A stretch of DNA of 64,000 nt from Harriotta raleighana. Taxonomy: Eukaryota. The notes below the pieces were generated by a model, which was given only the letters and a program-made list of their open reading frames with translations, was not told the origin of the DNA and ran no database searches. The position numbers and the translations under genes are program-made. The stretch's first letter is position 1. Each line of letters opens with the position of its first letter. Location: NCBI GenBank assembly GCA_050575255.1, contig JBNZDD010013610.1, positions 2,092,366 to 2,156,365 of the forward strand, read 5' to 3'. Positions 629 through 61,976 of the stretch are shown here, piece by piece.

Positions 629-787
629 ATGATAAAACTTGAGCAGACAATCAAACAGCTTAAGGAAGAAAGAGCCCGACTGCAGCAACATTGCCATGAA
701 TTGGTAGAAGAAAATGAACAGCTTCATGCACAACTGGAGGCTGAGAACTTAGCTATGGAAAGTGAGCAGAATGTTATGTCAATGGAG
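629..787 (+). CDS. PMFBP1: Exon 1 in window (159 nt, phase 0-0): MIKLEQTIKQLKEE...NVMSME
   Basis: ttgtacag|ATG acceptor, GAG|gtcagt donor, heptad-rich. Confidence 0.85.
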
Positions 788-2127
788 GTCAGTCCCCTTT
801 TGTTCAATAGAGCTCCACAAAACCTCTATATGCTGTAGAATTACACATGTTAATCTGTGCATCATATCTAATTTTCAGTTAGCCGTAAACAATGTGTAAA
901 TTTATCTGAAAACGCCACATAACCGCTGGAAAATATTGTGGCGTGCAATCTGTTCATCATGTTCACAATAATGAACTAGTTAGTCCACAACATAGGAAAA
1001 TCAATGAATAATTCCCTTCAAAATATTTTAGTGTATGATCTATGTTACATGACCCATCTATGCACAATATTAGCTTTAGCTCTTTTTTCCATTCACAAAT
1101 CACAAGATTAGTTCGGATGAAGAACTTCTGAACTCTGTTTCAGAAGTCCTTGGCTTCCTGCGAAAAATTGCTCTGCATTAAAATGATTTTTTGTTACAAC
1201 TGTAAGACTGCCGGAGTCAACAAGTTGGTTGATTTTTTTACAAATTGATTTCAAAATTTCATTTTCCACATTTTTGTCATTTAGCATTAACTAGAATTGC
1301 TCATTAACTTTATACAGTATTCTACAAATGCAAAGAGATTTGAGCTGTGTTTTTTTTTGGCTTTGGCATTGAAAGTAATGACTTTGCTTACTAACTTTGT
1401 AACCTAACCTTGGTAACCTATCTTTGTGAATTGTGAAAAGTTTTTTTAGATTGGATATGAAGAATGTTTTCAAATATGATAGAGCTTGGAGCAAAGGGAC
1501 ATGGCTCAAATTGAAGACTCATTTCCAATCATATAGGAGTTCACAGAGAAATCTGATTTAATATGGAATTCCCAAAAGCAGTATGATTGTCAATTCAGAA
1601 GGAGATTCAAAAAGTCATCCATACTCCAACTGTAACAGAGGTTTCAAGGCACTAATTTTATTGTTATTCAAAAGACAAATGGAAAAGGTGCATGGTAGTA
1701 GAGACTGAGAGTGAAAGATAGGAGAGAAAAAAAAACGTTTTCAAATAAAATTCAGTTAAATCCATGTGCATATACAGCCATGTTACAAATACTATAACTT
1801 GATGGAAAATGTCAGATTGAATATAATTACCAAATCACAATTTGTCCCATATAAAGTCAGCGATTGTGTTTCTGACTGTGATACCAAATAAGAGTAAAGA
1901 TTTTGACTTAAGCAAACAAGCCATTTTCTTTCTTGTGGATTTCCGTTCAGTCATTGATTTTGTAATTTTCAAACATGCAACTTGTTTGTATTGGAAAAGC
2001 ATCAAAGGAAATGGAAAACCTTTGTTGTGATATAACACCACATCATGACAGAATCCTGGAAAAAGGTCATGTCACAATTGTTGCTAAATATATATTAAAA
2101 ATTAATGAAGCCCTTTTTTTTCTCCAG

Positions 2128-2211
2128 TTGAATATAAAAGAAAGTTTGATTCACAAGCTGAAAATGGAAAGCATTGCCCTGCAAGACAAAGCTAAGGCAG
2201 CTGAACAAAAG
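2128..2211 (+). CDS. PMFBP1: Exon 2 (84 nt, 0-0): LNIKESLIHKLKMESIALQDKAKAAEQK
   Basis: ttttttttctccag| acceptor, AAG|gtaaag donor. Confidence 0.9.
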
Positions 2212-3248
2212 GTAAAGTGTTCTGCATGATTTGCAATTCCGGGTCTACATAAATCTTTCAAAATTTGGCCCACACACAAAAAGTACATACATTTAAAACC
2301 AGAAGAAGCATATTTCTACACAATGAATTGATTTCTGTTGGGTTTCCATGAAAATACATGTAATTCCAACTTGTAAAGTAATTATAAATACAGTATTCAT
2401 TTATTGGATTAAATTGTAGACATTTTACATCTCTCCTGGGATTGAGAGAGTTGCTTTACATTTCATGCAATTCCAAGGCTATGTGTTTGAAGATGATACT
2501 GATTTTCATGTTGTCAAGTTACTCCAACTGGCCACCTTCATGTAAATCCCTGATTCCAATTATGCAGCAAGTTGTCTAGTTCACTTAGAGGGTTTATGCT
2601 ATAGAAGTGTCTCCATTCTTCACTGCTTCTTCAACTCGAGAGAGATCACAGGCTCAAGCAAAATCTTTTGGGCGTTTATTTATAATGGTACAATTTTTCA
2701 CGTAAGCATTCTTTTGAAATAAAAAACCTGATTCTTAGCAACTCATTAACACCTGTATCACCACAACTATATCAATGGTAACACAATTAAAATAACATGA
2801 CAATAAAAAACTATAGGTTCTCTGGGATTATATAAATTGAGAATCTATTTTTCTATGTAGTCAATTACAAACACCAAATCACCTTTGGAGCTCAAAACTT
2901 TTAATGATCATGTTTTTTGTTGGTACAGCATTCCTGTTTAATTTCAGTTAATGTTATGCATTGTAGAGAGTCCATTCAGAAATTGAAAATATTTACAGAT
3001 CACATGTACTACTGTATGCCTCCATCGGTTGAAAGAGCAATACTATATATTGCAGACCTGCCCTTTTTTTAAAAAAAAAGAAGCTGTAACAGAACAGTAT
3101 GTATTTTAGGCTTTATTGTTGATGCCCCTGCATTGCTAGCAGCTGAATCCATTAGGAGTACTGTGCCCTAATTTTTCAGGATATGTTTTACCATTAGAGA
3201 GCGAGAAAAAATGATGATGCCTGTTACATTCTTTTCCTTTCACAATAG

Positions 3249-3395
3249 ATTTTTCAACATGAAATGCAGATTGAACATCTAAATCAGCAGTTTAAATCAA
3301 CAGAGGCAGTGAAAGTGACCAGTGATGAGACAATCCACAGCCTAGAGAGACAGCTTCGAGAGTACAGAACACGCCATCAGGAGACGGCAGAAGAG
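3249..3395 (+). CDS. PMFBP1: Exon 3 (147 nt, 0-0): IFQHEMQIEHLNQQ...RHQETAEE
   Basis: cttttcctttcacaatag| acceptor, GAG|gtcact donor (weaker); open coiled-coil frame not listed in the ORF track. Confidence 0.85.
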
Positions 3396-3622
3396 GTCAC
3401 TGCTGTTACAAACTAAACACTTTTTTTAATCATTTAGATTCGCTTGTTATTTTCTGCTCCTAGCATTGCACTTTTAAACATCCATCCTTCAATAGAGAAA
3501 AGAGCAAATAAATAGGCCACAGCAAATATTTTTCTTTTGACAATAATGGATCCTGGGATAATGGAAAGAAATTCAATAATTAAACCAGAGTTTCAGATAC
3601 ATTTTGATTTTGATTAGATCTA

Positions 3623-3722
3623 TAATAATAATCCTTGCATTTTGATATAGCGCTTTTCATGCCTTCTAGATGTCTCAAAGCGCTTCACAGAATATATTGT
3701 AAAGTGAATTGACTGCAAATAT
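3623..3722 (-). mobile_element. 3' fragment of tRNA-head SINE with (TTA)n tail
   Basis: taataataatccttgcattttgatatagcgcttttca...cgcttcacagaatatattgtaaagtgaattgactg matches the full copy at 52431. Confidence 0.85.
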
Positions 3723-4224: not shown

Positions 4225-4335
4225 GCATTTTTCTGTATTGCAGTTGATGGTTTAATCTATGACTCTTTTCCCATCAACTGGGGCTTTCCAAGGGTCTGTG
4301 TTCTATCCTCCCCTTTATCAATTACTCCCTCCACT
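4225..4335 (+). mobile_element. Highly decayed L2/CR1-type RT fragment
   Basis: Translates TGAFQGSVFYPPLY, a degenerate GVPQGSVLGPLLF motif. Confidence 0.45.
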
Positions 4336-5248: not shown

Positions 5249-5416
5249 GTGAATCGATGTGAAGATACAATAAGACAGTTGAATGAGGAGCTTTCATCTA
5301 TTCAGATTGTTCAGGATTCAACTAAGAGGAGCACTAAGGTGATGGAGGAAACATTCCAACAACTGACAACTGAGAGTGAGCTCCTACAAAACAAACTCAA
5401 AGAATCTCAAACACGG
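5249..5416 (+). CDS. PMFBP1: Exon 4 (168 nt, 0-0): VNRCEDTIRQLNEE...KESQTR
   Basis: tattctag| acceptor, CGG|gtaatg donor. Confidence 0.9.
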
Positions 5417-11788: not shown

Positions 11789-11968
11789 ATGATGGAAATG
11801 GAAGAACACCTGAATGCCACTGAGTTTGAATCTGACACCTTAAGATGCAAACTGCAGAATAAAGCAGAAGATTTTCAGCATCTTATGGACCAGTTCAGGG
11901 AATGTCAAGAAGCCCTGCATCAGGTGACCAACGAACTGGATGAAACAGGGAGAAATGCAAACAATGAG
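11789..11968 (+). CDS. PMFBP1: Exon 5 (180 nt, 0-0): MMEMEEHLNATEFE...RNANNE
   Basis: ctttgcag| acceptor, GAG|gtatat donor. Confidence 0.9.
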
Positions 11969-14002: not shown

Positions 14003-14086
14003 ATTGCGAGAAGGGAAGAAAAAAATTGTACTTTACAGAAGCACATAGAAGACTTGCAGGATCAGTATACCGGTTGTTACTCTGAA
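14003..14086 (+). CDS. PMFBP1: Exon 6 (84 nt, 0-0): IARREEKNCTLQKHIEDLQDQYTGCYSE
   Basis: cctgcag| acceptor, GAA|gtgagt donor. Confidence 0.85.
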
Positions 14087-14344
14087 GTGAGTGTATGTTG
14101 TATGTATGTGGTACATAGGTAAATGTAGAAATCAGCTATTTTCATAATTGCAGATTTCCATGCTTTTCAATGCACAAGAGAGGCATTTTGAAGATTTGAG
14201 CATATGTCCACTTTTCCCATTATTCAAGTCAGGCAAAGAATCTTCCTGGAGAATATGGAGAATCATGTTCAATCTATTTGCCTTAATGCGCAGAAGAGTA
14301 TCTTCTGCTCTATCAGTGTTTTAACCTGATTTTTTGCAACATTA

Positions 14345-15002
14345 TCCTCTTCATCTGCTACGACACTGCCTCACCCCTCATGCTGCTGAGATACTGGTCC
14401 ACGCCTTCATCACCTCAAGGCTGGACTATGGGAACTCTCTCCTTGTAGGCCTTCCCGGTTCCTCCATCCACAAGCTGCAGGTCATCCAGAACTCTGCAGT
14501 TCGTGTTCTCTCCCACACCAGGCTTCATGACCACATCACTCCCACCCTCGCCCGTCTCCACTGGCTCCCCATCCCCCAGAGGATCGAATTCAAGATCCTC
14601 ATCCTCACCTACAAGGCCATTCACGGCCTTGCTCCCTCCTACCTCTCTGACCTCCTATCCCCCTATCTACCTGCCCGTACCCTCCGTTCCTCTGGCACTG
14701 GTCTGCTCCACATCCCCTGCCCTAACCGTCCTACCATCGGCGGCCGGGCTTTCAGCCGCTCAGCCCCCAGGCTCTGGAACTCCATCCCCCAGTGCCTTCG
14801 CCTCGCTTCCTCCTTTTCCTTTCTTTTCGACCGTGCCTTCAACGCCCCTCTCGAGTCTCTACCCCCTCCTTGCTCCCACCCTTCCCCCCCCTCGCCCTGA
14901 ACATCTTCCCTTGCTCGGGTCCTGAACCAATCTGTCCAGCGCCTTGGGACGTCCTCCTGACGTGAAACGCGCTCTATAAGTGTAATTTTGTTGTTGTTGT
15001 TG
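14345..15002 (+). mobile_element. 5'-truncated L2-clade LINE (ORF2 C-terminus, 3' UTR, (TTG)n tail)
   Basis: [50 protein letters not shown] and [14 protein letters not shown] are typical L2 ORF2 C-terminal motifs; ends aattttgttgttgttgttg. Confidence 0.92.
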
Positions 15003-15154: not shown

Positions 15155-15322
15155 TTGTTACACAATGAGGATGTTCTGGCGGAATTGAAGAGCAAGTTAG
15201 CAGATGTTAATGAAGAGTCAGCTGAACAAGCAGTGACTCTCTCAAATGTTACGTTGGAAAAGCAGAAGCTGGACACTGAACTCAGTATCCTTAGTGAAAA
15301 ACACATAACAGCACAGAGTGAG
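15155..15322 (+). CDS. PMFBP1: Exon 7 (168 nt, 0-0): LLHNEDVLAELKSK...ITAQSE
   Basis: tgtgcag| acceptor, GAG|gtatgt donor. Confidence 0.9.
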
Positions 15323-15969: not shown

Positions 15970-16053
15970 GTTAACACCAGGGATCAAACCATTTTGAAAC
16001 TGAAATCTGAATTAAAGACTGCTCAGGAAAACGTCAAGAGTGCATGGGAGGAG
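15970..16053 (+). CDS. PMFBP1: Exon 8 (84 nt, 0-0): VNTRDQTILKLKSELKTAQENVKSAWEE
   Basis: ttttctttatggcag| acceptor, GAG|gtaagt donor. Confidence 0.9.
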
Positions 16054-16304
16054 GTAAGTCCTATAGGCTTAGTGATGGATTTCTGCATTTATCATAATGC
16101 CAGGTTTCCCTTTCCTTTTCTTAAGGACCAGTGACTTAATTAGGTTTTAAGAGGCCTGAAAACTCCATGTTCTTAATGTTAAAACCATTGACTTGAAATT
16201 TAACATTGTGCAGAATTTTGAAAAATTTGGAAGGCGTTTTTTTACAGCTCTCAAAAGACGCTGCAGATATTCCATACTCGAGCAAAAGACTGTCAACATG
16301 CCAT

Positions 16305-16357
16305 TAATAATAAATAATAACTTGCATTTGATATAGCGCTTTTCACGTCTTCTAGAC
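16305..16357 (-). mobile_element. SINE tail fragment
   Basis: taataataaataataacttgcatttgatatagcgcttttcacgtcttctagac. Confidence 0.8.
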
Positions 16358-16442
16358 TTCACCCTGCATTATGTACATTTAACTCAATATGACTCACAAA
16401 TATGTTCCTCTTGTTTTTTTGTCATTGATTATGAATCCAATA

Positions 16443-16652
16443 TTTTACTCCACACGCCTAATAATAACCTCTAAAAAAAAATTTGGTCATTTTATTCCAC
16501 GACTGTTTGTGAGACACTGATGTGCACAAATCTGCTGCCGTGTTTCGCGCACAAATATATAGTCAATTCATTTTACAGTATATTCTGTGAAGCACTTTGA
16601 GACGTCTAGAAGACGTGAAAAGCGCTAAATCAAATGCAAGCATTATTATTAT
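16443..16652 (+). mobile_element. SINE lacking tRNA head
   Basis: ttactccacacgcctaataataa...gactgtttgtgagacactg...gacgtgaaaagcgctaaatcaaatgcaagcattattatt. Confidence 0.85.
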
Positions 16653-16989
16653 ATCTGCTCCATTATTTTTCAAAAATTATGAAGACTAACAAACTGAATT
16701 AGTATCTGGTGCTTTAGTTGCTTGCCAAATATATATGATTTAAAGATAGTTTGTTGTTGGTAAGAACACTTATGGGCCAAGTGAACTAAAGATGAAGTTA
16801 CTCAATTTGTTAGTCGAAATTTGTGCTGGCACTCAACTAATCGCAAAGATTTGTCCATAAAATTCCACATTTCAGTGGATGAGAACCCTCATTTCATTTT
16901 GAGAATGATTAACACAGATATTTTTGATCTTGTCTACCTCCTTCATACACTTCCTGAAACAGTGGGGCAAACCAACTTGGTGCAATTTA

Positions 16990-17600
16990 TAAAATGTATA
17001 AAGTGCTGGGAAGCTCCTCGAGGCAAGTTCCCAAGCAGGACATGTCTGTATTCCTTTCAGTTCAGTGGTTCTGTCAAGATGTTTTCTGTCCAGGTCTGGC
17101 ATTCTGTTAAGTGTAATGTCAGTAAAGAAGGCGTCAAGATCACTTTCCATTGATCCATATTCTGAGGAGTATAGATGTGAGCAGAATGCTTTCAACTTGG
17201 TAGTGATTCTCTCACAGGACGTGATTAGTTGGCCAGAGCTGTCCCTCAGGGCCAAAATTAGGGTAGAACTATCCATCACCCTAATAAATCTTGCTTTGAC
17301 TTCCTTGTCTTCTCCACATGCTTATTACAGTTGATTTTTGATCAAAATAATAATCATTCTGTCTTCTCACTCGCTAACCTTTTAAATCTGTATTTCTTCA
17401 CTATTAATGCCCTTCTAAGAGCAGGGCATGTCTGCACTTGAGCTCTCTAACCTATCATCCTTCCTTTTCTGCCTACTGTGTGTGACATGATCCTTCCACT
17501 GAGGCAAACTTTAAAGTATTCCAGAAGACTCTATGTCTCACTGTCTATAGGCATTATTCTGGATGTATTCTAATTTCCTGAAATACATCAAAGTAGATAG
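16990..17600 (-). mobile_element. Decayed L1-clade LINE ORF2 fragment (region between endonuclease and RT)
   Basis: Minus strand gives LEYFKVCLSGRI (cf. WEAFKAxLRGxII) and ILALRDSSGQLIT...KAFCSHLYSSE...LDAFFTDITLNRM, typical of fish L1 ORF2. Confidence 0.7.
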
Positions 17601-19004
17601 TGTGGGACCTTGACATACTGCGGATACTTATGATAGCACATGTGTCCATGAAGGTTAGGTAATGTTATTTTCTGGAGTAACTATTATGAACTAGGATAAG
17701 AAGCTATCCTTCTTTCTAATTGAGATGTACCATGGTATATCATTTATGCCATGTTTTAGATTGTAGATTGACAGAAGTGTTTCAAATAATAATGCACAAT
17801 TTGTTGAAATGTTTTTCCCCACAAAACACAGGAAAGGTTTGTTACGAGATTCCGAACTGGAAAAAAATAGGGCTTTGGCATTTGTGGGGATAGATATTAT
17901 CTGGTTTAACAAGGCACAGCTGACCACTTCATAAGATAAGTATCATTCTTGTCATTGCTCAGGTCACAGTGAATGATGACAATGGAAGGATTATTATTAT
18001 TATTATTCAACCTTTCCTAAACAAAAGGTTGGTGTCCATGGTTGTATCCTTACATGTTTTGTGAGCTCTTTATCTCTGAGGTGTAATCATTCGCAGACGT
18101 AAAGGAACAAGAGCGATCTCATGTGTCTCGTACTCCAGCTTGTTTTTTACCAGTTCCCCCAACCTGTACATGTTTATCTCATTTGTGGTACCTGACACCA
18201 TTTGCTATGGAAGTTCTTGTCTTATTTGATTATTGGCAAGGTTTATGCGAGACTTTCTCAAACTTCAAGAGAAATACAAAATGCAACTCTATAGTTTCAA
18301 GAATCCACTCTTTCAAGGTGATGTAGATCAGAGACCTCAACAACTCCTAAGATTCCCACTGATTGCATTCCGTAATAGTGCTCTTCCAACTCTATCCTTC
18401 ACATTCACTAAGTGTTTTTCTTTCCAGGCATCAGATTAATGGCTCGTCACAATCCCTATTTAATTTGGAATTTAATCCTGTGATCTCTGCTTTGTGAAGC
18501 TAATATCTGGAATTCAACTGTCAGAAAGACGGAACCTGTTTTCTATCAACTTGTGATGGTGCATGTTGCTGTTTCAGTGCACTATTCCACACATCTTAAA
18601 TCATTGAGAAATATTGTCTTTAAATTACCTTGGAAGCTAGTGTTGTCAAAGCAACATTGTATCTCTCAAACTCTGTCAGATAGTAACTTTAAATTTTATA
18701 AGTAGTACAAATAATTTATATGAAATGACATCTTCCTCACCCTGTAGATTTGGCTGAAAACTTTTATGTAGGAATTTTTTTTAGTTAAATGACAGGTTCT
18801 GAAAGCAGAAGCATATAATAGTATCGTCTTTTTGTTTGTGCATTGTACATTTGTGGCTTTATTTATTTATTTGTTTATTCAATTATTCATTCATTTCTTT
18901 CATTTATTCATAAGTGTACTGCGTTTGGGAAGCTCATTATAGCCCAAGGGCATGTTTCCAAAAAAAATGTGTATGTGACTTGTTTGTAATTATTCTTTGA
19001 TCAG

Positions 19005-19049
19005 ACTCGAAAAGTTACTCATTGTAAAATTGAAGGTCTTCTAGAAAAA
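19005..19049 (+). CDS. Candidate optional small exon (45 nt, 0-0): TRKVTHCKIEGLLEK
   Basis: tattctttgatcag| acceptor, AAA|gtaagg donor, frame-preserving with no stop; no homology support. Confidence 0.3.
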
Positions 19050-19211
19050 GTAAGGTTTCTGATTATAGCCAAGTTACTGTCAAGTTTGATCCTAACTGTT
19101 AAAGATGTTAAATATAATACATTTTCAGCAACCGACTTGAGTCTTGCCCATCATATATCTCATACCCTTTATATTCTTCTTCTTCACTACATTATGTGAG
19201 TTGAATATATT

Positions 19212-19310
19212 TTTCCCACAAAATGCTCGGTCAATTTACTTTGCAGTCTCAAAGACGTGATAAAGTGCTAAATCAAATGGAAGGATTAATACTATTATTA
19301 TTAATAATAT
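19212..19310 (+). mobile_element. SINE 3' fragment with internal deletion
   Basis: cccacaaaat..gtcaatttactttgcagt|ctcaaagacgtgataaagtgctaaatcaaatggaaggatta. Confidence 0.65.
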
Positions 19311-20344
19311 CTAGTTTTTGATTAACACTAAGAGTGCTGACAGGATTTTTAAAATTCCTGTCTTCATTTAAATTCTAAAATGTAAAACTTTACATGCGTT
19401 CTTCCTGCCACCCCTTGTTTTTCAATCTGTTTCTTTTCTTCCCTATTCTCACTTTGTCTTTTTTATTTTAACTTTTAGTTAAACAATTTCCTCCTTGCTT
19501 TTTCTCGCTGACTTGACTTGTCTTGTGAATGACTGAAAATCTATTTCGTCCCTCCTTGCCAAAACACATCTTTTGCTTGAGGATTGGCTGAGTACCAATG
19601 GATTTCAAAATCAGAGAGGTTTCTTTATCTCCTCGCCTCACAATGAGAAACAAGTATTTTATCCCAATCCATGAGTTTTAAAAAACCTTAACCTATTTGA
19701 ACCTATTCATTAAACATTATCAAACAAAAATGTTAAAGAAGGTTAACATAAATATTAATCTTTCTAATCTATGTATATGCTGAGGGGTTGGGGGAGGTCA
19801 TTATATGGTGTGTCAAAAGATAATAATGAAAAAAAGTTATTTGCTTTGTATATGTAATTCTTATCTACCTTCAGGGCAACCAATCAGGCTCCTTTAATGA
19901 CATTGTTATGCATCAGTGTTTCCCCTGTCAAAGTGCTTGTGTATATGAAAGTATTAGCAAATGTTATTGAAGAAGCATAATTGTGGATCAAGAGTTGACA
20001 AAAGCATAGATGTTGTAATACAGCAAGAGACTAAATACAGTACAAGCCGTGGGTTGTTGAGTTTCCATGGTGTTAATATCCTAAAGAGACCAGAGATTTA
20101 TTTTATTGCGGTTATAAAGGACTTATTAACAGTATTTACCACAAGAGTGAACCTGCTTATTCTTTCAATTAGTACATGTACTTGCCATTTCAATATACAG
20201 TGTCATGTCCACATTTTTAAAGATAATATTAATTGAAGTCACTATGTATTGTTAGAGAATTCCAAATGGCTGGTAATGTTATAGGAATGGAAACTTTTGC
20301 CTTCAGTTTCTCTTGGTGTTTTGGTCAAAAATCCCCCAGAACAA

Positions 20345-20512
20345 AATGGCCATTCATTTCATGGCTGTGTGTTGGACATTGCTGTGTGCAAATTGGCTAC
20401 CACATTCACCTACAGATCCAGTCAGTACAGTTTAGAGTAAAGCACTTTGGGAAGTTTTGAACATACCATAAGGCACTATACCAAATGCAAGGATTATTAT
20501 TTATTATTATTG
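20345..20512 (+). mobile_element. Diverged SINE 3' half
   Basis: ggacattgctgtgtgcaaattggct...gcactataccaaatgcaaggattattat. Confidence 0.75.
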
Positions 20513-21094
20513 TTAGTATTCACTTGCAGAATTTGAATTATAAGTATTTACAAAGATGTTTATATAAAGCACACTCCAAATGCTTCACAAATTTATGCTC
20601 AAATTTGTCTGTCTACCAGGAAGTAGGAAAACATAATTGCGTATTAAAGAGAATATTGAAAATTTAGAACCAAGGGGGTTAATTGGCAAGATTACAAACT
20701 GGAAATTGTCACTCGCTTCCTATCTTCTTCATCTGACCTTTTATCTTTCAAAATTATAACAATTAAAATTGGAATAAAGTGTATTCATTTCTGTCAGTTT
20801 TATATGGGAAAAATTACGTGATATTTGAAAATGATTTACATGAACTTTTTTCTCATATTGAAGCAACCGGCATGACATTAATTTTTAATGATTTCTTTCT
20901 GCTTCATTTGGAAAGAGATTGTGGCAACGCATTTTCCAGGTAATCAGGCGTATAGCCCTGTACAAAATAATAAGCAGTATGCCGACAATTTCCAAAAAAA
21001 AAGAGTGAAAAAGGTTGAGGTCAGTGACTAAAGGTGAAGCAGTAATGTATTCATTGCTGGCAAATTACTAGGACATTTGCTTTCTTTCCTCTAG

Positions 21095-21106
21095 CTTAGA
21101 AAACAG
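21095..21106 (+). CDS. Candidate micro-exon (12 nt, 0-0): LRKQ
   Basis: tttgctttctttcctctag|CTTAGAAAACAG|gtatgt: strong pyrimidine tract and consensus-like donor, frame-preserving. Confidence 0.4.
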
Positions 21107-24100
21107 GTATGTTTAATCATCCAGGGATATTGGAATTCTGATTGACCAGCACTCTCCTAGAAAAGTGTTTCTTAATTTTGATTGATGAAGCGGTTTATCT
21201 TAGACATTTTTTTCCACTCTGCATCATGAAAATGATATTAGAAACTAAATGAGATTCAGAATTTCCTGTTTGACAAGCTTGGTTGATGAAAGGGTTCCAT
21301 GTCAAGGTCTGACACACTAAAATTATATGCAAATACTGTTTGAGCTCCATTCAAAATTAATCAAGGGGCAAAAAAGCAGACTATCATAGGAGCATGTTCA
21401 TATTTCTGGCTCATTTTAAATTGCCAAAGGGTGTTTTCAGATTAGTTAGTTTGAGAAATTGGGGTTTGACAACGATGCTAAAGCTCAGTTTAGCCGGATT
21501 TTTGATGACTAACGCTTTAATTTTCTTTTTCTTCACAAATTTGCTGGCATTTATTTTTATCCTTGTGTTTTTAAAATTGTTGACATAATTTTCATGCTCT
21601 CTTAATCGTCCCAAATCAACATTTCACTTTAAATAAATATATTCTAGCCCAGACACCTTCTTTTCATCATTTGAAGACTCATTATATTGCTTTTTAAAAT
21701 ATTAATGGTAATATTCAATGCATATTATACATGAAAAATAAAAAGATGAAGGGAAATGCAATTTCATTGTTAAAAATGCCCTAATTGTGCATCATTACAG
21801 TACCATCCATTACATTTTAAGCATATTTTGTGTGCTAATATATAAAAGTGTAATTCTAATTTGTCAAATAACCCAAGTTTTCCCAAATATGCAGCTCAAG
21901 TGGACAAAAAACAAAAGTGCAGATAATAAAATAAGTAGTAGGCACAAAATAAAATTGAGTTAATTGGCAGAGATTTGGGATGAACAAAGGTTGGATAAAC
22001 TAATTGTGGCAAGACATATAGAACAAATGAAAATAAAAGCAGAAAAAAAGATGTGTATCCTCATGGGAGACAGATCAGTTACTCAAAAACAGATGATGAA
22101 ACATAGCTGATAAAGAACGTCAACTAAAAATATTGTGGCATTCAACTTTAAAATGTCAATGTAAATAAATTCTTCTGACTCTTCAAATGCTTGATTAATC
22201 TGTAACAAGTAGGGAATATGGAAGGGAAACATTTCACTGGTTACATAGCTTTAGGCTTTTCCTTTATTCTCACTTTGTTTGCATGTTGAATTGTAGCAAG
22301 GTACATTCTCGTACGATGTACCTCAGAGTATTTTTAAAGCACGCAGTATAATATGGTATGCTTTCATTAATGAAGAATAATGAACAGCTATACCGTATTT
22401 TATCTCTGAAGACACTTACCAGTTCTAAATAGCAGAATAAGCCTGTACGCTACATATCAAATTACTTTAGCTATTTATCCTCCCAGATTTTTCATTTGTA
22501 ATGCTGTAATGCAGTGTCCATTTGCTGTGAACTACTAACAGAATCATCTGAAAGATGGATGCTTTGAATGTATTGAATTATGATAAATAACACAGAAGCT
22601 CAGTTAAATAAAACTAAATACAAGTAGAATCATTTTGAAGACATCTTTGCTAATCAGAGTGAAAGAGTAAACTTTAGACTAATCTATTTTAAGATTCCTC
22701 AGCATGGGCTGTAAACTCATGGCCCACCTTTTCCTACTTTAGCTTTCCCGTCTTTTGCAGGACTGTGTCACTTTGGGTACACATTAATCACGGGTTCCCA
22801 CTCAACTCACTCAGACCAGCCCAAGAATCAAGCCTGAAACCTCCTGATCCATGCACTATTTTTTTTACGTCTATCTAAAATAATCTGTGAATAACACATA
22901 GGGCATCCATTTTAATACCTTCCTTTGAATTTTATTTTTAATTGTTTATGTTTTATTAGATCTCAACTGGCTTAAAATTTTTGTATATAATTAATGGAAG
23001 AAGATTTCAAACACAGTAGATCTCGTGAAGGGAAAGGGATCTTGACTCTATTAAGGATTTTGTATCCCTAGTCATCTATATCTTCATTGCAGAATGTTGA
23101 TTTTTAAGAAGGTAGCTACTGTTCTCTTCCTGATCATAGTCGTCTTCAATAAAACAAAGAGCGACCGAGGGAACTTTCTCTCACTCCTCTGGCAGGACTA
23201 CTTTGCGCGGAGACACACATATGAGTAGCCCAGGAAGACTCCATCTGGCTGTNTCTCTCACTCCTCTGGCAGGACTACTTTGCGCGGAGACACACATATG
23301 AGTAGAATTCCACTCAGTGGCGTACTTTAATGGCACAACCATTACCAGAAATTTACTTTCAACATTCTAGAGGGAACAGAGAGAATATATACTGAGGTGA
23401 ATTATGGGTGTGAGCCCTCATGTTCCTCTTCCATATATAATTAATGAAGTGTGATTTGTGAGTGGGTAACATAATTTCTTCTTTCTCCACAGAGATTATT
23501 TTATTTTCCCGACTCCTGTGTTATTTGTTTGGGATATGGAGAATAGCACTATAATTGGATTTACTCTCAAGGCACTTAATGATGAATAATCCACCGAAAT
23601 GCACAAAATTTAATTATACTGTATTGAATTTTTTTTTTAAATGCTTTCCTCGTCAATACATAGTCAATGAATGGAAGCTTAAATTGCCAGTGTCCTGAAA
23701 GCAGTGCTATTTTGCTTAGTATGTATGATTGACAGTCATTTGCAAGAATGCTTTAGTTGCCTACATGGAATTATTTAAAAATGCAAACTTTCAAACAATA
23801 CTGAAGGGGGTTACTACCAGATGCCACTTGATCACTATCTGAAAGGAAGAGTGACAACGGAAAGTGGGATGTTGTACAAGTTGCACTTTATGCCACAGTA
23901 TTGTCATCCTTCACTGTGAACCGAGCAACAAATTAAATATTGGTAATAGTACCTGTCCTCTCTTGGATCTGAGTATGGGTGCAAGTCATTTACCTAATCA
24001 ATTTTCAATAAGCCTCCTTTTATACACAGAGATCAAATATGTGCTAAGATTACATTTTTTGTGAATTCCACAAATTAAATGCTGTCTGAAAGACTTGCCA

Positions 24101-25025
24101 TGTATTAAAAGTGCATTATGATACCATTTATATTAAAAGGTTAATAGGTTGCTGGCATTTAACGACTTAGATAGATCTAATATTAGCCAATGCATCTATA
24201 TTTTTGTGGTATAACCTACTCAATCAGCAGCAGTGATAGACTGGGCGATAGTTATCTCACTCCAAAGATGGCTGTTGTTGGAGGAATAAAACAAAACACA
24301 TGTCCTGTTATTCTTCATAACTAAAATCTGTTTTAAACACTGACAACATTTAATATTTAACAAGCTGATGTTAAGCTGGAATAATATAATCTTTACTGGT
24401 TAAATACATTTTAAGTAGACACTGCTCCCCAAAAGATCCAAGTGTTTGATTTATGAATTTCACATTACTCCACCATTTAATGTGTTCATCACCATAAATA
24501 TGAAGAGTACTAATCATAGATGCACAAAAATCATACGTATGAATGTTGAACTCTGTAACTCAAAACTTGTAAAATTGACCTATTCAAGACAGTATAAACT
24601 AAAACGAAAGTGAAATCATGCCAACTGTTCCTCACTTTGTAAGATTTTCACATATTTACACTAAAGCGACAACCTATATGCTCTCATTTTATAACAAACA
24701 TATTCAGTATTCACAGACACACACATACACAAACACAGATTGACAGGGGCATTGTTTTCACAAAGTCCTAGGCAACAAACATACACACCAAATCAGTACA
24801 GAGTGTGGCTTGTGATTTTAACATTCATGGATAACACTGGCATGTTTGTATCTTAACCCTTTGAATTGGGCAGAATAAGGACTTAATTTTTATACTTTGG
24901 ACAATTACTGTATATCAGTGCTGTTGGTGGCTTTCATTTACAGAATTTACTTGAACAGTATTTACTTGACTGAACAACTGAATTATGTTTCTTCTCTTCC
25001 CTCCCCTTTTACATGTCAGCTGCGA

Positions 25026-25138
25026 GTCATTCCATATGTGGTCCTTTCCAAATTTACAACACTTTATTTATTCAAAACTGCATGTCATTCCATATGTGGT
25101 TCTTTCCAAAATTACAACACTTTATTTATTCAAAACTG
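25026..25138 (+). repeat. Tandem duplication, 58-bp period, 2 copies
   Basis: gtcattccatatgtggt[c/t]ctttccaaa[t/a]ttacaacactttatttattcaaaactg occurs at 25026 and 25084. Confidence 0.95.
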
Positions 25139-25309
25139 ATAGGATTATTTTGAAAGGAAATTTTTCAGTTACCGCAAGAACATGTCCCAAATGACTGCAT
25201 ATTTCGTTGAAAGCTCCCCTTCACTGGTACAGATGGTATGTACGTAGAGTAAGCTGCAAGAAACAAAAGCTAATGTGAGACCTATCAAATTTTGTTTGTG
25301 CGTCCTTAG

Positions 25310-25552
25310 AGTCAGAATCAGGAGAAATCCATGAATCAGCTTCAGAAAGAACTGGAAGCCAGCAAACGGGCACATGAATCAGAAATGGACCGCTTCACCC
25401 GTGAAAATGCTCAACTTCAGAAGGAGCTAGATTCTTGTACCAAGGAATTGCAGGAGAGAATGGCCAAAATGCAGCAGTACAAATGCACAGTGGACGTGCT
25501 AAATGCTGACCTACAGCGCGGACATCAGCTTCATCAAGAGGTGGTAGATGAA
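25310..25552 (+). CDS. PMFBP1: Exon 9 (243 nt, 0-0): SQNQEKSMNQLQKE...HQEVVDE
   Basis: cgtccttag| acceptor, GAA|gtaagg donor. Confidence 0.9.
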
Positions 25553-26805: not shown

Positions 26806-26837
26806 CAGATAAGAGAATCATCAAAACGTGATTGCCT

Positions 26838-28757: not shown

Positions 28758-28988
28758 GTGTCCCGGTGTGAGGAAGTTCTGCGCAAACAGGAAGCGGAAA
28801 TGTCTCAGCTCAGACGGCAGCAGTTTGACTCCGACGACTGTTTAGTCGAAGCCAATCAGAAATGTAAATCTGCTGAAATGACTCTGGATCTATTTAAGCA
28901 GAAATACCAGTCTTGCATGAAGAAAATCACAGAGCTGGAATGTGCCAAGCAGATCCTGGAGGGCGAATTAATAGAAGTGAACAATCAG
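28758..28988 (+). CDS. PMFBP1: Exon 10 (231 nt, 0-0): VSRCEEVLRKQEAE...IEVNNQ
   Basis: tttttcag| acceptor, CAG|gtcagt donor; contains the LDLFKQKYQS PMFBP1-like motif. Confidence 0.92.
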
Positions 28989-30977: not shown

Positions 30978-31208
30978 ATCATCAGTCGTGATGAGACTGT
31001 CTGTAAAGTTCGGAGCGAGCTTCTTACATTGCAAGGCCAGTGTGAAACCAAGCGCAGTAAAGTGGAAAGTTGTGAGGACACGGTCGATCAGTTGACCAAG
31101 GAGCTGCAGGTTGCAAAAGCTGCCCTGAATGCTTCCAGAGAACATATTAAGCAATACGAGGAGGTGATTCGCTGTCTTCGGGATAAAGCATTTCTTCATC
31201 GTAGTGAG
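30978..31208 (+). CDS. PMFBP1: Exon 11 (231 nt, 0-0): IISRDETVCKVRSE...FLHRSE
   Basis: ttatttaattag| acceptor, GAG|gtaaac donor. Confidence 0.88.
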
Positions 31209-38214: not shown

Positions 38215-38337
38215 GCTACCGAACAGGAAGACACTATTGCAAAACTCCAAACAGACTTTGCTTCCTACAAAGCCATTCATAGCCACTCTGACAAAGAGTA
38301 TGAATCTCAGATTAGTCACATTGAAAGGCTTAAAAAG
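38215..38337 (+). CDS. PMFBP1: Exon 12 (123 nt, 0-0): ATEQEDTIAKLQTDFASYKAIHSHSDKEYESQISHIERLKK
   Basis: ctttcattccag| acceptor, AAG|gtgggt donor; coding frame differs from the listed ORF 38018..38374. Confidence 0.9.
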
Positions 38338-43492: not shown

Positions 43493-43619
43493 GATATTGT
43501 ACAAGTCAATGGTGAGATTTCTGAATATGTTCAGCAAATCGGCAAATACCAGGGGATGGTGCACAAGATGAACGCTGAATTATGTACCATTACAGAACAA
43601 AAGAATAATAGCATTAAAG
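43493..43619 (+). CDS. PMFBP1: Exon 13 (127 nt, 0-1): DIVQVNGEISEYVQQIGKYQGMVHKMNAELCTITEQKNNSIK
   Basis: ttttgccactag| acceptor, AAAG|gtaata donor; split codon G+AT = Asp with next exon. Confidence 0.88.
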
Positions 43620-44693: not shown

Positions 44694-44851
44694 ATGTGGC
44701 AAGGTTGGAGAAGGTTGTCCAAAACCTGCAGCTTGAAGTAGCCTCTGAGTTGCAAAAACACAAAATAGAGTCAGCTGAAACGGAACAGCACATTAAGCGA
44801 TTGGAAAATGACCTCCGCAACTGTCGCAAGTCTTGTATGCAGCAAGAAGAG
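44694..44851 (+). CDS. PMFBP1: Exon 14 (158 nt, 1-0): (D)VARLEKVVQNLQLEVASE...CMQQEE
   Basis: ttgtatttaaag| acceptor (AAG type), GAG|gtgagc donor; phase matches exon 13. Confidence 0.88.
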
Positions 44852-44941
44852 GTGAGCAGTTAAAGGATAGGTTCACAAAGGTTCATATTTCTGATGGTAT
44901 CATCTTAATGTATATTCCTAAATAACATGTAACTTATCTTG

Positions 44942-46382: not shown

Positions 46383-46629
46383 GCAATACAGAAGAGAGAT
46401 GACCTCTTGAGGAAGTCCGAGGCAGACCTGCTCCAGGCCCGTGATAGAATCAAAGGCAAGGCAGCAGGAATCGAGAAGCAGAGCACTATGGTAAAATGCC
46501 TGGAGATGGAGCTTCAGAGACATAAGAAGGAAAAGCAACAAAAAGAGAATGAAAATACTTCCCTCAAGGCTGAGATACAGCAGCTGAAACAGGAGCTGCA
46601 AGAGGCCAACAAGCAGTACAGACAATCGG
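46383..46629 (+). CDS. PMFBP1: Exon 15 (247 nt, 0-1): AIQKRDDLLRKSEADLLQAR...KQYRQS
   Basis: tttcctccaaag| acceptor, TCGG|gtaagg donor. Confidence 0.92.
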
Positions 46630-52430: not shown

Positions 52431-52462
<32 letters not shown>

Positions 52463-54017: not shown

Positions 54018-54207
54018 CACAGGAGCTGGCACATCATGAGGAAAAAGTACTGTTGATGGAGAGCAGCCTGCAGACCACACAAGACCAACTGAGCGATCGT
54101 ATCGCAGAGATTGTACGGCATGAACAGACAAACCGCAAGCTGCAGGCCGAGCTCAGGGCACTGAAAGAACGGGCAATGAACAAGGACAAGGAAACGGAGG
54201 AGGACAG
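54018..54207 (+). CDS. PMFBP1: Exon 16 (190 nt, 1-2): (A)QELAHHEEKVLLMESSL...KETEED
   Basis: tttccttcacag| acceptor, ACAG|gtaaag donor; phases match both neighbours. Confidence 0.92.
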
Positions 54208-57753: not shown

Positions 57754-57907
57754 GAGACTGATTGAAAAGCTCAAAGCTGAGAGTACACAGAGTAAACAGA
57801 ATCATGAAAGTGCTGTCCAGGCAGGAATAAAGCAACAGCAATCTGCTCACAAGATGGAAATGGAAGTTAACAACACCAGAGAGCAAATGAAAATACTGCA
57901 ACAGCAG
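57754..57907 (+). CDS. PMFBP1: Exon 17 (154 nt, 2-0): (R)RLIEKLKAESTQ...KILQQQ
   Basis: atatacag| acceptor, CAG|gtaggt donor; split codon AG+G = Arg. Confidence 0.9.
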
Positions 57908-58585: not shown

Positions 58586-58598
58586 TGATATATTTTAG

Positions 58599-58766
58599 GT
58601 GCAACAGAAAGATGACATGGGAAAACGGCTTCGAGAGGAATTAAGCATCGAACAATCAAGGCATCAAGAATTAGAGAGACAGCTTCAAAAACTGAAAGAA
58701 CGCGCAGGAGAACTGGAAAGAGAAACCGAAAGCATGAGTGAAAAATTGAAAACTAATTCGCAGATG
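58599..58766 (+). CDS. PMFBP1: Exon 18 (168 nt, 0-0): VQQKDDMGKRLREE...KTNSQM
   Basis: tattttag| acceptor, ATG|gtgagt donor. Confidence 0.9.
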
Positions 58767-59765
58767 GTGAGTATAGAAGATAAACATTTAACAATAAGCA
58801 TGACTTGTAGGGGCAGACCATTCACTGGGAGCAGAAATTAATCCCATTCCGCTCCTGTTAACCCTGCGAGACACAGATCGAAAGCGTCAGACAGTGCTCT
58901 CAATAGCAAATTATGTGATTTTAGCTGGTTATATCCCTGCAGTATGCCAGCACACACCCGGAATTCGATAAGCAGCGTGCATCCTTCCAGGGAGAAAGCG
59001 CACAATTTGTTTTCAGACCCAGGAAAATTGCCATGTTTAGGTGGCAAACATACATGGAATTTTCAGTCTGGTTTGGATACTAGACCGAGATGTGGTGATA
59101 GTTTTTAGACACCCGGCAGGCCAGACATCCTGCTGAAAAATGTGGATGAGTCAAACTTGGATGTAATTGCTCCACAGTTGAAAGCACACCAACATTCACA
59201 CAGATATGAAGAATGGCCATGTAGAAAAAGGGGCACAGGGTGACAGGTATCACAGAACTGTATGAGTTGAGACATCTTTTTAAAAAACAGCACACATTTT
59301 GTGTGGAAAATGCATTAAAAAATTATTATTTTATCAGTGGAGGACAGTACTGTACACTCCCAAGACTTTCATCTATTGCGTCTGTATTTCTTTTCCTCTA
59401 CAATGACTGTTACTGTGTCCATCTTAGATCTGTAATTGAATAGAGGATATCTCACTGGTGATATTGATTTTCTCACAATCCTTTACAAGTAAGAAAGACT
59501 AGCAACTCGGGAGTACCACCGCCCGTTAGCCAACGATAGCAGCCTCATGCACAATTAGAAGAATTCCTGGACCTCACTAAAACCAGTGAGCTATTCTATT
59601 TGCTCTTTGGGGAAGAGCAATACATAGAGCATTAACAAAGGCTTTAAATTCTAGAGAGATCTGCCAGATGTCAAATGAGAACTCACAGATTATATATTTT
59701 TGATAATTCAAATAACCTTTCAGGCAGTGTAAATATCATTCACTCCTTCAAAATAAATATGTTTC

Positions 59766-60128
59766 ATAATAATAATCCTTGCATTTTATATAGTGCTTTT
59801 CACATCTTCTAGACGTCTCAAAGCTCTTCACAGAATATACTATAAAGTGAATTGACTGTATATTTGTGGGCGAAATGCAATTGGGCACAGCCGTGTCCCA
59901 CAAACAGTCATGGATTGAAATGACTAATTTATTATTGGTTTTTTTGAGGGATTCTTATGTTTGCTCTCTCTACTCAACCTTTGATCCCACCATTGAATCT
60001 TACAAGTAAGAAAGACTTGGAGTAAGGAAGTGTAGAGTAAGGAAACTTGCTCAACATTTCTCCCTTCCTGGAATTGAACCAAGTCTCTTGCTTGTAAAGC
60101 GAGTTCTCTAACCACTGAACTATAGGAC
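59766..60128 (-). mobile_element. Full-length tRNA-derived SINE interrupted by a roughly 70-bp insertion
   Basis: Colinear with 52431 and 54452 except 59957-60030. Confidence 0.9.
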
Positions 60129-60579
60129 TCTATATTTGTGGGTTTTCTGAATAAAATTGCATATTGATTTTTTTCCTGGTAATTATACCTTCTTTCAAAA
60201 TACATATCGGTTATTGTCAAAAAATAATTGTCCAATTATAATGTTTAATAATGGCACTTTTACTTGTGAACATTAACAAAAATCTCCTAGATTAATGTTA
60301 ATCAGTTAACTGCTTTCATTAATGAAGTCAGTTTGCTCACTGTAGTCAATTCTGATGTCATTCAGGTAACAGAGAAAATTAAATATCTTTAATTTATAAT
60401 TTATCAATGGCTCGAAGGGTAAAATTATTTTATCCTACTATTTTGTAATGCGTGTGGATTCATCCATAGAGACAAAAAAAAGAATTAAGAAGAATAGAAA
60501 CCCTTGTCACTTTTAAGTATAGGCATGTTTAAATAGGAATGACAAATTTCAGATCCCAAGTGCAAAGTGGAAACGAAAG

Positions 60580-60723
60580 CCTTGGACATTTATTTGGGGA
60601 GGACGGTTTTGTGAGATTATGGGGAGAGAGCTGGGGAGTGAGGTGAAACTGCTCTTTTTATAGAGTCGGCACAGACTCGATGGGCCAAATGGCCTCCTTT
60701 TGTGCTGTAAGATTCTATGATTC
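60580..60723 (+). mobile_element. CR1 LINE 3' UTR fragment
   Basis: ttatggggagagagctgggg..agagtcggcacagactcgatgggccaaatggcctccttttgtgctgtaagattctatgattc; close to 28477-28588. Confidence 0.88.
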
Positions 60724-61571
60724 CACCTTGTTGTACCCTGTGAGATCATCGTTTCCTAAAATTTAAGATTGCGCAGAATTGTGGAATATTCTTAGTTCAC
60801 TCTGAATCTGGATGCCAGTTTCCCACCGGTATTTTAAAATATGTCTTCCAAATTGTTACTGAATTTAAGAATTTTGCAGAACTCTGCACAGTCTTATAAG
60901 ATAGTTCTTAAGACTTTTGAGGTTAGGTGGAATTTCAGACCTTAAGTATCTGCTTAAAGATTGTGATCAGATGACACCCAATTGTCTGGATGAGTTTATT
61001 TGTATCTTTTGTTTATGTAAAATAAAGCGTTTCACTAATATCAGCATAGAATTAGCATGACTGGTATTGCGCACACTGCTCCTCTCATATTAAATATATG
61101 TTTGGACGGGTTGCGAAAGGTTAAACAAATAGATGTAAAAGTCAGTAATGAAAACCTCTGGTCTTCAAACACATGCTTCCCTTGAGACAGGCTTACATAC
61201 AACTGATATAATGAATAGCTTACTCTGTAGAATAGATCTGAATATATTACCGTTCTGCTTCTGTGATAAGACATACAGCATTAACCCTTCAACAGCAAAA
61301 ACGTATCTATAGACTACATAACATTTCTTCAAGATGGCATTAACCTTGTTCTAGTTAACTTTAGACTGATTTGTATTGCATTCTGTAAATCTGTAAATAA
61401 GGATCATCAGCTCTTAAGAGATACAGATTAATAAAGATGTTTACAGAACTACATTTATATGCACATGTCTCTATCCATTAACATGTGAATGTGGACCTGT
61501 CATAAGAGCAAACCAAAAAATATTGTACCTAACTACAGTAAATTCAATGCTTATATATATTAGATAACATA

Positions 61572-61632
61572 TTATATATATGTGTGTGTATATATATGTA
61601 TGTATATATATATATATACACACACACCACAC
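61572..61632. repeat. (TA)n/(TG)n/(CA)n compound microsatellite
   Basis: Seen directly. Confidence 0.9.
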
Positions 61633-61808
61633 AGTAAACTTCTGTAAAATATCATTAACTGTTGGTTGAAGTAAATGTGGGGGTTTGATGTGCAAAATAT
61701 TATATATACTACTGTCTTGTATAAGGAAGAATTTATCTAACGAAAATTGGTGAGAGAAGGAACAATTACATCTAAACTGATGTACAGAATCTTCATTTTG
61801 CTTCCTAG

Positions 61809-61976
61809 CTGAAGGACAGGGATGATCGGATTTCAAATCTCGAATCCTATTTGACTGAGTTGCAGAGAAAGTACCAGACGCTGCTTAGTAAACACAGAAA
61901 TTGTGAATCAGAAATGCACTTGAACAAGACAAGCCTGATGTCAGCTCACAAACAGAACAAACACCATGCCAAAGAG
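61809..61976 (+). CDS. PMFBP1: Exon 19 (168 nt, 0-0): LKDRDDRISNLESYL...KHHAKE
   Basis: ttttgcttcctag| acceptor, GAG|gtaaga donor; not listed in the ORF track. Confidence 0.9.

Follow-up and report, generated by a model that had tools for sequence, protein, structure and literature searches.

A 28-residue repeat and register-matched exons in the predicted coiled-coil rod of chimaera PMFBP1, likely derived from tandem copying of an 84-nt exon

Fibrillar collagen genes contain a characteristic series of 54-bp exons with sizes that are multiples or trimmed forms of an ancestral unit matching the structural repeat of the protein. In the chicken BG genes, exons of 7 (sometimes 8) residues encode the tail of a membrane-bound Ig-V protein, as described in the available part of PMC4046983. 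Coiled-coil rulers and spacers like ROCK, giantin, and Sas-6 are composed of a long divergent rod and a conserved end region, and molecular rulers are defined by their conserved length in the accessible text of PMC5082667. The human infertility gene PMFBP1 (polyamine-modulated factor 1-binding protein 1) has scarcely been described in structural terms; its mouse product is a testis-expressed sperm head–tail coupling protein of the sperm neck that binds CENTLEIN via residues 750–1023 in the C-terminal region, and mammals require this protein (available sections of PMC8363609). Full-text literature searches, with subscription journals mostly outside their scope, listed no work that by its title or opening abstract lines deals with the exon structure, a repeat, or a paralog of PMFBP1.

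The window analyzed here comprises 64,000 nucleotides of the chimaera Harriotta raleighana (contig JBNZDD010013610.1, positions 2,092,366 to 2,156,365) and contains 19 exons on the + strand (629 to 61976) that have AG/GT ends throughout and splice into a single open frame. Judged by their best matches, the adjoining DHX38 gene, and a phylogenetic tree, these exons make up the central part of chimaera PMFBP1. Exon 15 shares 96% identity with a Callorhinchus protein and 68% to 73% with shark and ray pmfbp1, and the whole chimaera model (at least 1,775 aa) is colinear with elasmobranch PMFBP1 at 56% to 60% identity. A ZFHX3/4-type gene lies upstream on the same strand, and human PMFBP1 presumably adjoins ZFHX3 as well. 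Downstream, exons of PRP16/DHX38 follow on the opposite strand, and human DHX38 and PMFBP1 are placed at one shared locus in the accessible portion of PMC5333359. In a quick, unrooted maximum-likelihood tree of 21 rows, a branch with support 100 splits off a paralog clade from mammals, teleost pmfbp1, and chimaera PMFBP1, and alignment scores concur. This paralog likewise has a ZFHX3/4-type gene upstream in the same orientation, and the split between both genes predates the divergence of cartilaginous and bony fish. Proteins of amphibians, sturgeon, and tarpon are products of the paralogous gene, several of them under the label PMFBP1. Searches for a pre-duplication outgroup gene found none: an N-terminal search returned three elasmobranch proteins alone, and atlas searches returned unspecific coiled-coil clusters that had few features in common and gave no lead. 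Pfam searches with 15 exons gave coiled-coil matches only, all below threshold, and those with five full-length relatives (E 1e-5) gave ATG16 in one and nothing else. No solved structure of a PMFBP1 relative was found at E 1e-10, and we treat the rod as a predicted coiled coil. The exons homologous to the CENTLEIN-binding part of mouse PMFBP1 were mapped by eye to the region downstream of the window.

The first 12 exons are all of phase 0-0, and their junctions, like those further downstream, are supported by colinear shark and ray proteins at the level of sequence. Exon 1 (629..787; 53 codons) aligns to shark and ray PMFBP1, has heptad position a as its first residue, and carries a stutter near residue 38. 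Exon 2 (2128..2211; 28 codons) is a single repeat unit, and exon 4 (5249..5416; 56 codons) comprises two. Between them, exon 3 (3249..3395; 49 codons) is missing from the Chiloscyllium models and lacks its first heptad in the Hypanus model. Exon 5 (11789..11968; 60 codons) has a terminal stutter and is missing in three ray models, while exon 6 (14003..14086; 28 codons) is again missing from Chiloscyllium models. Exon 7 (15155..15322; 56 codons) and exon 8 (15970..16053; 28 codons) are followed by the long intron 8 (16054..25309). Exon 9 (25310..25552; 81 codons, likely 25+28+28) has a stutter near residue 24. Exons 10 (28758..28988) and 11 (30978..31208; 28+28+21) have 77 codons each, and the equivalent of exon 10 is skipped in database isoforms of fish (77 codons) and mammals (74 codons). 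Exon 12 (38215..38337; 41 codons, i.e., 42 minus 1) starts at a, ends at f, and is skipped in isoform models of zebrafish and Carassius. Exons 13 (43493..43619; 127 nt, phase 0-1, first residue at g) and 14 (44694..44851; 158 nt, phase 1-0, with a stutter) match a single 88-codon exon of the paralog. Exons 15 (46383..46629; 247 nt, phase 0-1, first residue at g), 16 (54018..54207; 190 nt, phase 1-2), and 17 (57754..57907; 154 nt, phase 2-0) form a phase-linked triple. Exons 18 (58599..58766), which is missing in the Narcine model, and 19 (61809..61976) have 56 codons in phase 0-0, and three further 56-codon exons follow past the window end (64052, 65110, and 68387). LINE-derived open reading frames (e.g., 26914-27019) and other false exon calls had no match in relatives and were dropped.

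Of these 19 exons, 14 are phase 0-0, and their lengths as given in a preliminary description (53, 28, 49, 56, 60, 28, 56, 28, 81, 77, 77, 41, 56, and 56 codons) are exact. Its reading that ten of them are multiples of 7 (7n), that 53, 60, and 81 are 7n+4, that 41 is the sole exon of neither kind, and that exons 13 and 14 (127+158 nt) sum to 95 codons and thus again 7n+4 holds as well; the triple of exons 15 to 17, which it left out, has 591 nt or 197 codons (196+1, i.e., 7n+1). At least 10 of 14 exons at 0 mod 7 would be expected by chance with a probability of 2e-6 (1.4e-5 for any residue class), and the shared mod-7 class of three of the four remaining exons is weak evidence alone (p = 0.016, rising to 0.097 when the class is chosen post hoc). 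As a held-out test, 9 of 13 phase 0-0 exons of chimaera PMFBP1 outside the window are also 7n (p = 1e-5). Such enrichment is not routine among coiled-coil genes: 17 of 22 de novo called chimaera PMFBP1 exons are 7n compared to 18 of 77 in eight coiled-coil control genes (Fisher p = 7e-6), though the control exons are unverified de novo predictions by a splice model that had learned from PMFBP1 and its paralog, so that mis-called ones would overstate the contrast. The controls themselves show a mild bias in the same direction (p = 0.02), and one gene of the rootletin family has 6 of 14 exons at 7n. All 19 7n exons of chimaera PMFBP1 have sizes of only 28, 49, 56, or 77 codons, and the heptad count is divisible by 4 in 14 of them (p = 1e-5).

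The heptad register was fitted with a custom, intron-blind Viterbi model of hydrophobicity (rather than Marcoil or DeepCoil) that gave an identical outcome under two penalties. This fit places four register breaks in the window, all of them +4 stutters and located in exons 1, 5, 9, and 14, which bears out the earlier proposal that exons of 7n+4 length carry stutters. Heptad position a is the first residue of 22 of 26 rod modules in chimaera PMFBP1 and 21 of 24 in the paralog, compared to 29 of 106 in controls, where the fraction still exceeds a null of 15.6% (p = 0.001). The paralog shares the exon sizes and the four stutters of chimaera PMFBP1. The odd lengths of the 41-codon exon and the 197-codon triple arise because two introns lie one codon early; a myosin-like skip residue inside the triple was rejected given that the register runs through it continuously.

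The real unit underlying this layout is a 28-residue repeat and not the free heptad. Sequence blocks at exon starts are similar to those at offsets 0, 28, and 56 and dissimilar to those at 7, 14, and 21, and within 56-codon exons the offset of 28 scores 0.435 with the other four offsets below zero. When heptads were shuffled with splice-adjacent residues masked, 0 of 2000 shuffles scored as high, in PMFBP1 and the paralog alike, and MAFFT aligned 14 of 15 56-codon exons in a single register. A profile trained only on 28- and 56-codon exons located unit starts in the untrained exons 12 to 17 on a grid of 28 residues with one step of 25. This grid persists although all five introns of that region lie off unit starts, and the period is thus not simply read from present exon borders, a point that counts against an origin by exon copying. 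Also counting against such an origin, the unit profile peaks at the module start in just 6 of 13 untrained modules of chimaera PMFBP1 and 1 of 12 in the paralog; in the 197-codon block, which is shifted, the peaks fall at offset +1. The units resemble each other only distantly (mean column identity of 32%), and some of this likeness could be common to long coiled coils in general. In the stutter-free half of the rod, the similarity at lag 28 is 0.48 compared to 0.52 for myosin and remains high at lags of 56 and 84. In PMFBP1 of Pongo and zebrafish, the repeat has eroded.

Differences between relatives were assessed from automated database models of isoforms and exon loss. From exon 1 on, Chiloscyllium model P0023 differs from the chimaera by whole exons only (absence of exons 3 and 6, presence of an extra 56-codon exon), and Hemitrygon P0003 has exons 3 and 6 in a form free of indels. 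The extra 56-codon exon occurs in shark and ray PMFBP1 and in the paralog at the position of chimaera intron 8, where alignment scores for it are at chance level, an absence that the preliminary description had missed; an assembly gap hiding this exon was ruled out, as a 3,580-nt contig of a relative spans the N at 23253 and has a shorter spacer there. The suggestion that exons act as interchangeable modules therefore stands in the sense of register neutrality over evolution, because whole exons of 28, 49, 56, and 60 codons vary between cartilaginous-fish models. In contrast, the claim that most of them could be skipped is not supported as stated: just 10 of the 19 can be removed singly with frame and register unchanged, or 13 if loss of a stutter is allowed. 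Unlike a molecular ruler, PMFBP1 is not conserved in length, with about 930–1,220 aa in mammal matches and 1,630–1,930 aa in elasmobranch models; in three elasmobranch species, the proteins have 1,850–1,930 aa compared to about 1,000 in mammals. Relatives also carry indels that are not 7n: three rays have one of −3, Narcine has one of −18, and mammals have many, and mammal PMFBP1 has lost the 7n discipline. Taken together, the database models suggest that whole exons were lost repeatedly without harm to the register, and this makes it likely that the rod is a length-tolerant tether.

In our reading, the predicted PMFBP1 rod consists of 28-residue repeats in series, with introns located where repeats begin, and this layout likely arose by tandem copying of an 84-nt phase 0-0 exon before gene duplication. 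An exon of 28 codons would have been copied in tandem, followed by duplication of the gene itself; units may have merged to 56 codons through intron loss or been trimmed, either by one heptad (49 and 77) or by a three-residue loss (25, 53, and 81; the stutters), and in exons 12 to 17 the introns may have slid or been replaced. Selection for an unbroken coiled coil likely purged out-of-register length changes thereafter, and the possibility of losing entire exons with the register unharmed would be a by-product. Growth by copying of a 28-codon exon likely explains why nearly all exon starts share one heptad phase. The 28-residue repeat alone does not yield this pattern, as shown by myosin, which has such a repeat yet only 3 of 17 phase 0-0 exons at 7n.

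The shared phase could alternatively have been maintained since regulated exon skipping yields rods of varied length, i.e., a tunable ruler or linker, and whole-exon isoform differences within species (28 and 49 codons in Chiloscyllium, 49 in the Xenopus paralog, 77 in zebrafish and Misgurnus) as well as g|a introns that leave 10 of 19 window exons removable fit this notion. Similarly, a paper that PMC4046983 cites ascribes chicken BG size polymorphism, in its title, to heptad-region length. However, these skipping isoforms are automated models, and the 10 distinct rod deletions among 34 pairs of isoforms or close relatives comprise four of 7n, three of 7n+4, and three of neither kind (41, 101, and 150). 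Given that the register-breaking 41-codon exon is skipped in two fish genera, this mix resembles permissive in-frame skipping; moreover, eight further Narcine isoforms differ from X1 near the protein ends only, and mammals depend on PMFBP1 (available sections of PMC8363609) despite their loss of 7n discipline. We therefore regard maintenance by regulated skipping as unlikely. We give somewhat less credence still to the conjecture that the rods of PMFBP1 and its paralog are quantised in steps of 28 or 56 residues and that exon gain, loss, or skipping sets the length of a lattice-matched sperm head–tail tether within and between species. With a coiled-coil rise of 0.148 nm per residue, such steps would span approximately 4.1 and 8.3 nm, close to the spacing of tubulin monomers and dimers.

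Introns could also have been gained singly at proto-splice sites (xAG|G) set at heptad borders by the codon usage of coiled coils, with 7n lengths as a generic by-product. An xAG codon indeed precedes 25 of 31 real phase-0 junctions, and introns of controls are mildly enriched ahead of position a, but the register bias there is much weaker (Fisher p = 1e-8). Exon-internal AG|G is rarest precisely at g|a (1 of 108 in chimaera PMFBP1 and 4 of 109 in the paralog) and most frequent at e|f (14 of 127 and 9 of 127), and the predicted exons of 21, 35, 42, and 63 codons are missing from both genes. These observations largely refute proto-splice insertion as the main cause and leave it highly improbable. 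We consider least probable of all that the 28-residue period is a selected binding or packing repeat (for packing into filaments as in myosin, or for matching a lattice) that introns followed secondarily. Its persistence in both paralogs and across the region of off-grid introns and a lag-28 similarity near that of myosin speak for such selection, but 28-residue charge banding is absent (p = 0.66 and 1.0 compared to 0.003 for myosin), the decay in Pongo and zebrafish is at odds with it, and packing leaves intron placement unexplained, as myosin illustrates. As an extra constraint, a packing repeat is compatible with our preferred explanation by exon duplication.

The exon map of PMFBP1 doubles as a register map of its rod that marks four conserved stutters and natural units of deletion, and predicts which in-frame exon losses should be tolerated. 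It provides ready-made length variants for testing the importance of rod length at the sperm neck and a clear example of a long coiled coil whose likely assembly from a four-heptad exon is still legible in two paralogs.

Compared to PMFBP1 of sharks, rays, teleosts, and mammals, the chimaera gene is an orthologue that is colinear over its whole length. Elasmobranch PMFBP1 has 49- and 56-codon exons that the chimaera model lacks, while mammal PMFBP1 (about 1,000 aa) aligns solely to the C-terminal part of the chimaera model (at least 1,775 aa), and the repeat that is clear in the chimaera has decayed in mammals. The myosin II rod has a four-heptad sequence repeat of similar strength, but differs in its 28-residue charge banding, its introns unconnected to the repeat, and its skip residues where PMFBP1 has stutters in the window; Myosin_tail_1 gave no match on the PMFBP1 contig among the 45 matches listed. 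The butyrophilin-related chicken BG genes are alike in that many symmetric, heptad-matched exons compose their coiled-coil region (available part of PMC4046983), but the unit of PMFBP1 has four heptads, is often fused, forms a soluble rod, and is old and kept between paralogs. No Pfam match to BG or butyrophilin traits (Ig-V, membrane anchor, B30.2) was found in five full-length relatives at E 1e-5, and the chimaera PMFBP1 model contains no 7-residue exons (smallest coding exon of 65 nt). PMFBP1 resembles the coiled-coil rulers and spacers in its long divergent rod with a conserved end region, but its length spans a nearly twofold range and changes by whole exons at a time. Like fibrillar collagen, it has exon sizes derived from one unit matching a structural repeat, even though the Gly-X-Y triple helix of collagen is unrelated to its predicted alpha-helical coiled coil.

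The window carries 19 plus-strand coding exons (629..61976), every end of which is AG/GT and which together form a single open frame; exon 15 shares 96% identity with a Callorhinchus milii protein and 68-73% with shark and ray proteins named pmfbp1, identifying the source as a chimaera. Flanking stretches add 12 exons upstream and 7 downstream, resulting in a PMFBP1 model of 38 exons and 1,775 residues without stops that excludes the first and last coding exons. Further downstream lie DHX38/PRP16 on the minus and PSMD7 on the plus strand (loci L020-L021), and PMC5333359 lists DHX38 and PMFBP1 under a common human locus. In a quick maximum-likelihood (ML) tree (21 sequences, unrooted, SH-aLRT support only), a branch separates a second clade from the side that holds our gene, mammalian PMFBP1 and teleost pmfbp1. 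The predicted exon junctions are supported by comparison with shark and ray proteins, themselves automated models: from exon 1 on, the Chiloscyllium model (P0023) differs by whole exons only, and two exons missing from it occur without indels in the Hemitrygon model (P0003). Two single-N joins between duplicated flanks (23253 and 51346) are assembly overlaps, decayed reverse-transcriptase fragments that we take to be LINE-type lie within introns at 14325-14897, 16875-17321 (minus strand) and 26813-28504, and high-copy short repeats occur near 16300-16650, 20470 and 25600.

The preliminary description had proposed that exon lengths are quantised to coiled-coil heptads (7n codons) or heptads plus a stutter (7n+4). 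Its 14 phase 0-0 lengths are exact, as are the 95 codons of the pair of exons 13 and 14, and 10 of the 14 are 7n (p 2e-6), as are 9/13 held-out phase 0-0 exons of the same gene (p 1e-5). For comparison, ten control coiled-coil genes, found by Pfam family in the same genome, were run through one exon-calling pipeline; 25 of 174 calls were dropped by a score filter and spans picked by eye, and two paralogue pairs were reduced to one gene each, leaving eight genes with 149 exons. With this de novo pipeline, 17/22 phase 0-0 exons of PMFBP1 are 7n and 3/22 are 7n+4 compared to 18/77 and 11/77 unverified calls in the eight controls (Fisher p 7e-6 for 7n; 23/97 are 7n across all ten), at least two control exons being presumably mis-called judging from the exon sizes of myosin. 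The pattern is therefore not routine among coiled-coil genes. Pipeline recall on curated exons of the two study genes (28/30 and 25/27) is optimistic, since both genes served to train the splice model. A mild 7n bias is general among the controls (p 0.02), for example in one rootletin-family gene (6/14) and SYCP1 (4/10). The former (loci L063-L070) is partially quantised with exons of 28, 49, 56, 77 and 147 codons; the latter (loci L052-L057), also partially quantised, has three 21-codon exons in a row and one exon present twice, probably by assembly duplication. Along the rod of another gene (loci L086-L093 on contig C13719 of genome G000), presumably kinectin-like, a pair of 91-nt (2-0) and 69-nt (0-0) exons recurs several times, and this is likely another coiled coil built by exon duplication, with a non-7n unit.

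A paralogue or twin on contig C13668 (~850,000-1,045,000, minus strand; loci L023-L042) has near-identical exon sizes at 38% protein identity, and 18/25 of its phase 0-0 exons are 7n, though not as an independent sample of the pattern. In place of 95 codons over two exons it has one 88-codon exon, short by exactly one heptad at its end. Each gene has a ZFHX3/4-type gene upstream of it in the same orientation (the ZFHX pair is 70% identical) and PEX2 adjoins the twin, an arrangement indicative of a large-scale duplication. Proteins of sturgeon, tarpon and amphibians, labelled PMFBP1, PMFBP1-like, EEA1-like or hypothetical, cluster with the twin in the ML tree, so the exon layout was in place before cartilaginous and bony fishes diverged; none of the mammalian matches tested grouped with it.

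A register path fitted blind to introns places four breaks in the window, all +4 and in exons 1, 5, 9 and 14, so that the 7n+4 exons had correctly been read as containing a stutter, the commonest tolerated heptad discontinuity. The twin shows the same four stutters, and two further breaks (+4 and +5) lie upstream of the window. Among non-7n blocks, 5/6 are 7n+4 compared to 11/59 in controls (p 0.003), and 22/26 rod modules begin at heptad position a compared to 29/106 in controls and a caller baseline of 15.6% of internal offsets. Two apparent length exceptions, the 41-codon exon 12 and the 197 codons of exons 15-17, resolve by register: exons 13 and 15 begin at position g, so 41 is 42-1 and 197 is 196+1, and exons 12-17 form a block of 333 codons (7n+4) with one stutter.

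While the heptad numbers stand, the unit is not 7 but 28 residues. The 19 7n exons of the gene measure 28 (seven), 49 (three), 56 (seven) or 77 codons (two) and no other size, and exon-start blocks resemble other exons at offsets 0, 28 and 56, not 7, 14 or 21. Comparison within 56-codon exons gives a score of 0.435 at offset 28 and negative scores at the other offsets, and 0/2,000 within-exon heptad shuffles reach the observed class structure in either gene. When a profile built from the 28- and 56-codon exons is run over exons 12-17, on which it was not trained, the unit starts fall on the 28 grid with one 25-residue unit; the introns there lie off this grid, three of them at most 3 codons ahead of a unit start. 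Proto-splice intron gain is disfavoured, because among internal junctions AG|G occurs least often at g|a (1/108). The most plausible reading of the exon pattern is that an 84-nt phase 0-0 exon was duplicated in tandem and that its copies were then fused and trimmed under selection for register; whole-exon loss would be tolerated as a consequence of such duplication kept in register.

Over evolution, the exons apparently act as modules: five elasmobranch models (four species) contain 49- and 56-codon segments that our gene lacks, and variously lack exon 3, 5, 6 or 18. Loss of the 56-codon exon, kept in the twin, looks genomic, because searches of the corresponding intron score at chance level and its sole N (23253) is bridged by a relative's contig. 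The 49-codon segment occurs in elasmobranch PMFBP1 and the sturgeon twin; neither chimaera gene yielded it (27-kb intron upstream of exon 1 in PMFBP1, matching intron in the paralogue), which reflects either parallel loss or a missed exon. Smaller indels among relatives are -7 (three times), -3 (three rays), -18 (Narcine) and +3 upstream; a CAG located one heptad from the start of exon 3 (3249-3270) is a candidate in-register alternative acceptor, and a Hypanus model lacks exactly the first 7 residues of exon 3 compared to Hemitrygon. The proposal of interchangeable modules that can be skipped in register apparently holds for whole-exon differences between species, but some isoform deletions also break register. 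Ten distinct rod deletions among 34 isoform or close-relative pairs include four of 7n (28, 49, 49 and 77 codons), three of 7n+4 (46, 53 and 74) and three of neither class (41, 101 and 150); at the level of models, skipping extends to the register-breaking 41-codon exon and shows no indication of being selected for register. In mammals, PMFBP1 is ~1,000 residues long, its repeat has decayed and non-7n indels are numerous.

PMFBP1 is likely a long coiled-coil tether, and its 1,481-residue rod would span ~220 nm at the coiled-coil rise of ~0.148 nm per residue. Mouse PMFBP1 binds CENTLEIN through residues 750-1023, and at the sperm head-tail junction CENTLEIN connects PMFBP1 to SUN5 (PMC8363609); in our gene, the exons homologous to these residues lie just past the window. 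Regulated length tuning by exon skipping, as expected of the proposed tunable ruler or linker, is no more than a possibility. Conserved length, which defines coiled-coil rulers and spacers as characterised in PMC5082667, is absent from the PMFBP1 family.

A full-text literature search, with subscription journals mostly outside its reach, found no publication on PMFBP1 exon structure, repeat or twin. The heptad and 28-residue layout is a real, strong feature of a known gene, and PMFBP1 is a variant of a gene architecture that is already known in kind. As in collagen, exon sizes derive from one unit. The lag-28 similarity of the stutter-free half of the rod is close to that of myosin, but PMFBP1 has no charge banding, and myosin introns disregard the myosin repeat (3/17 exons 7n). 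Heptad-matched exons like those of PMFBP1 are described for chicken BG genes in PMC4046983.
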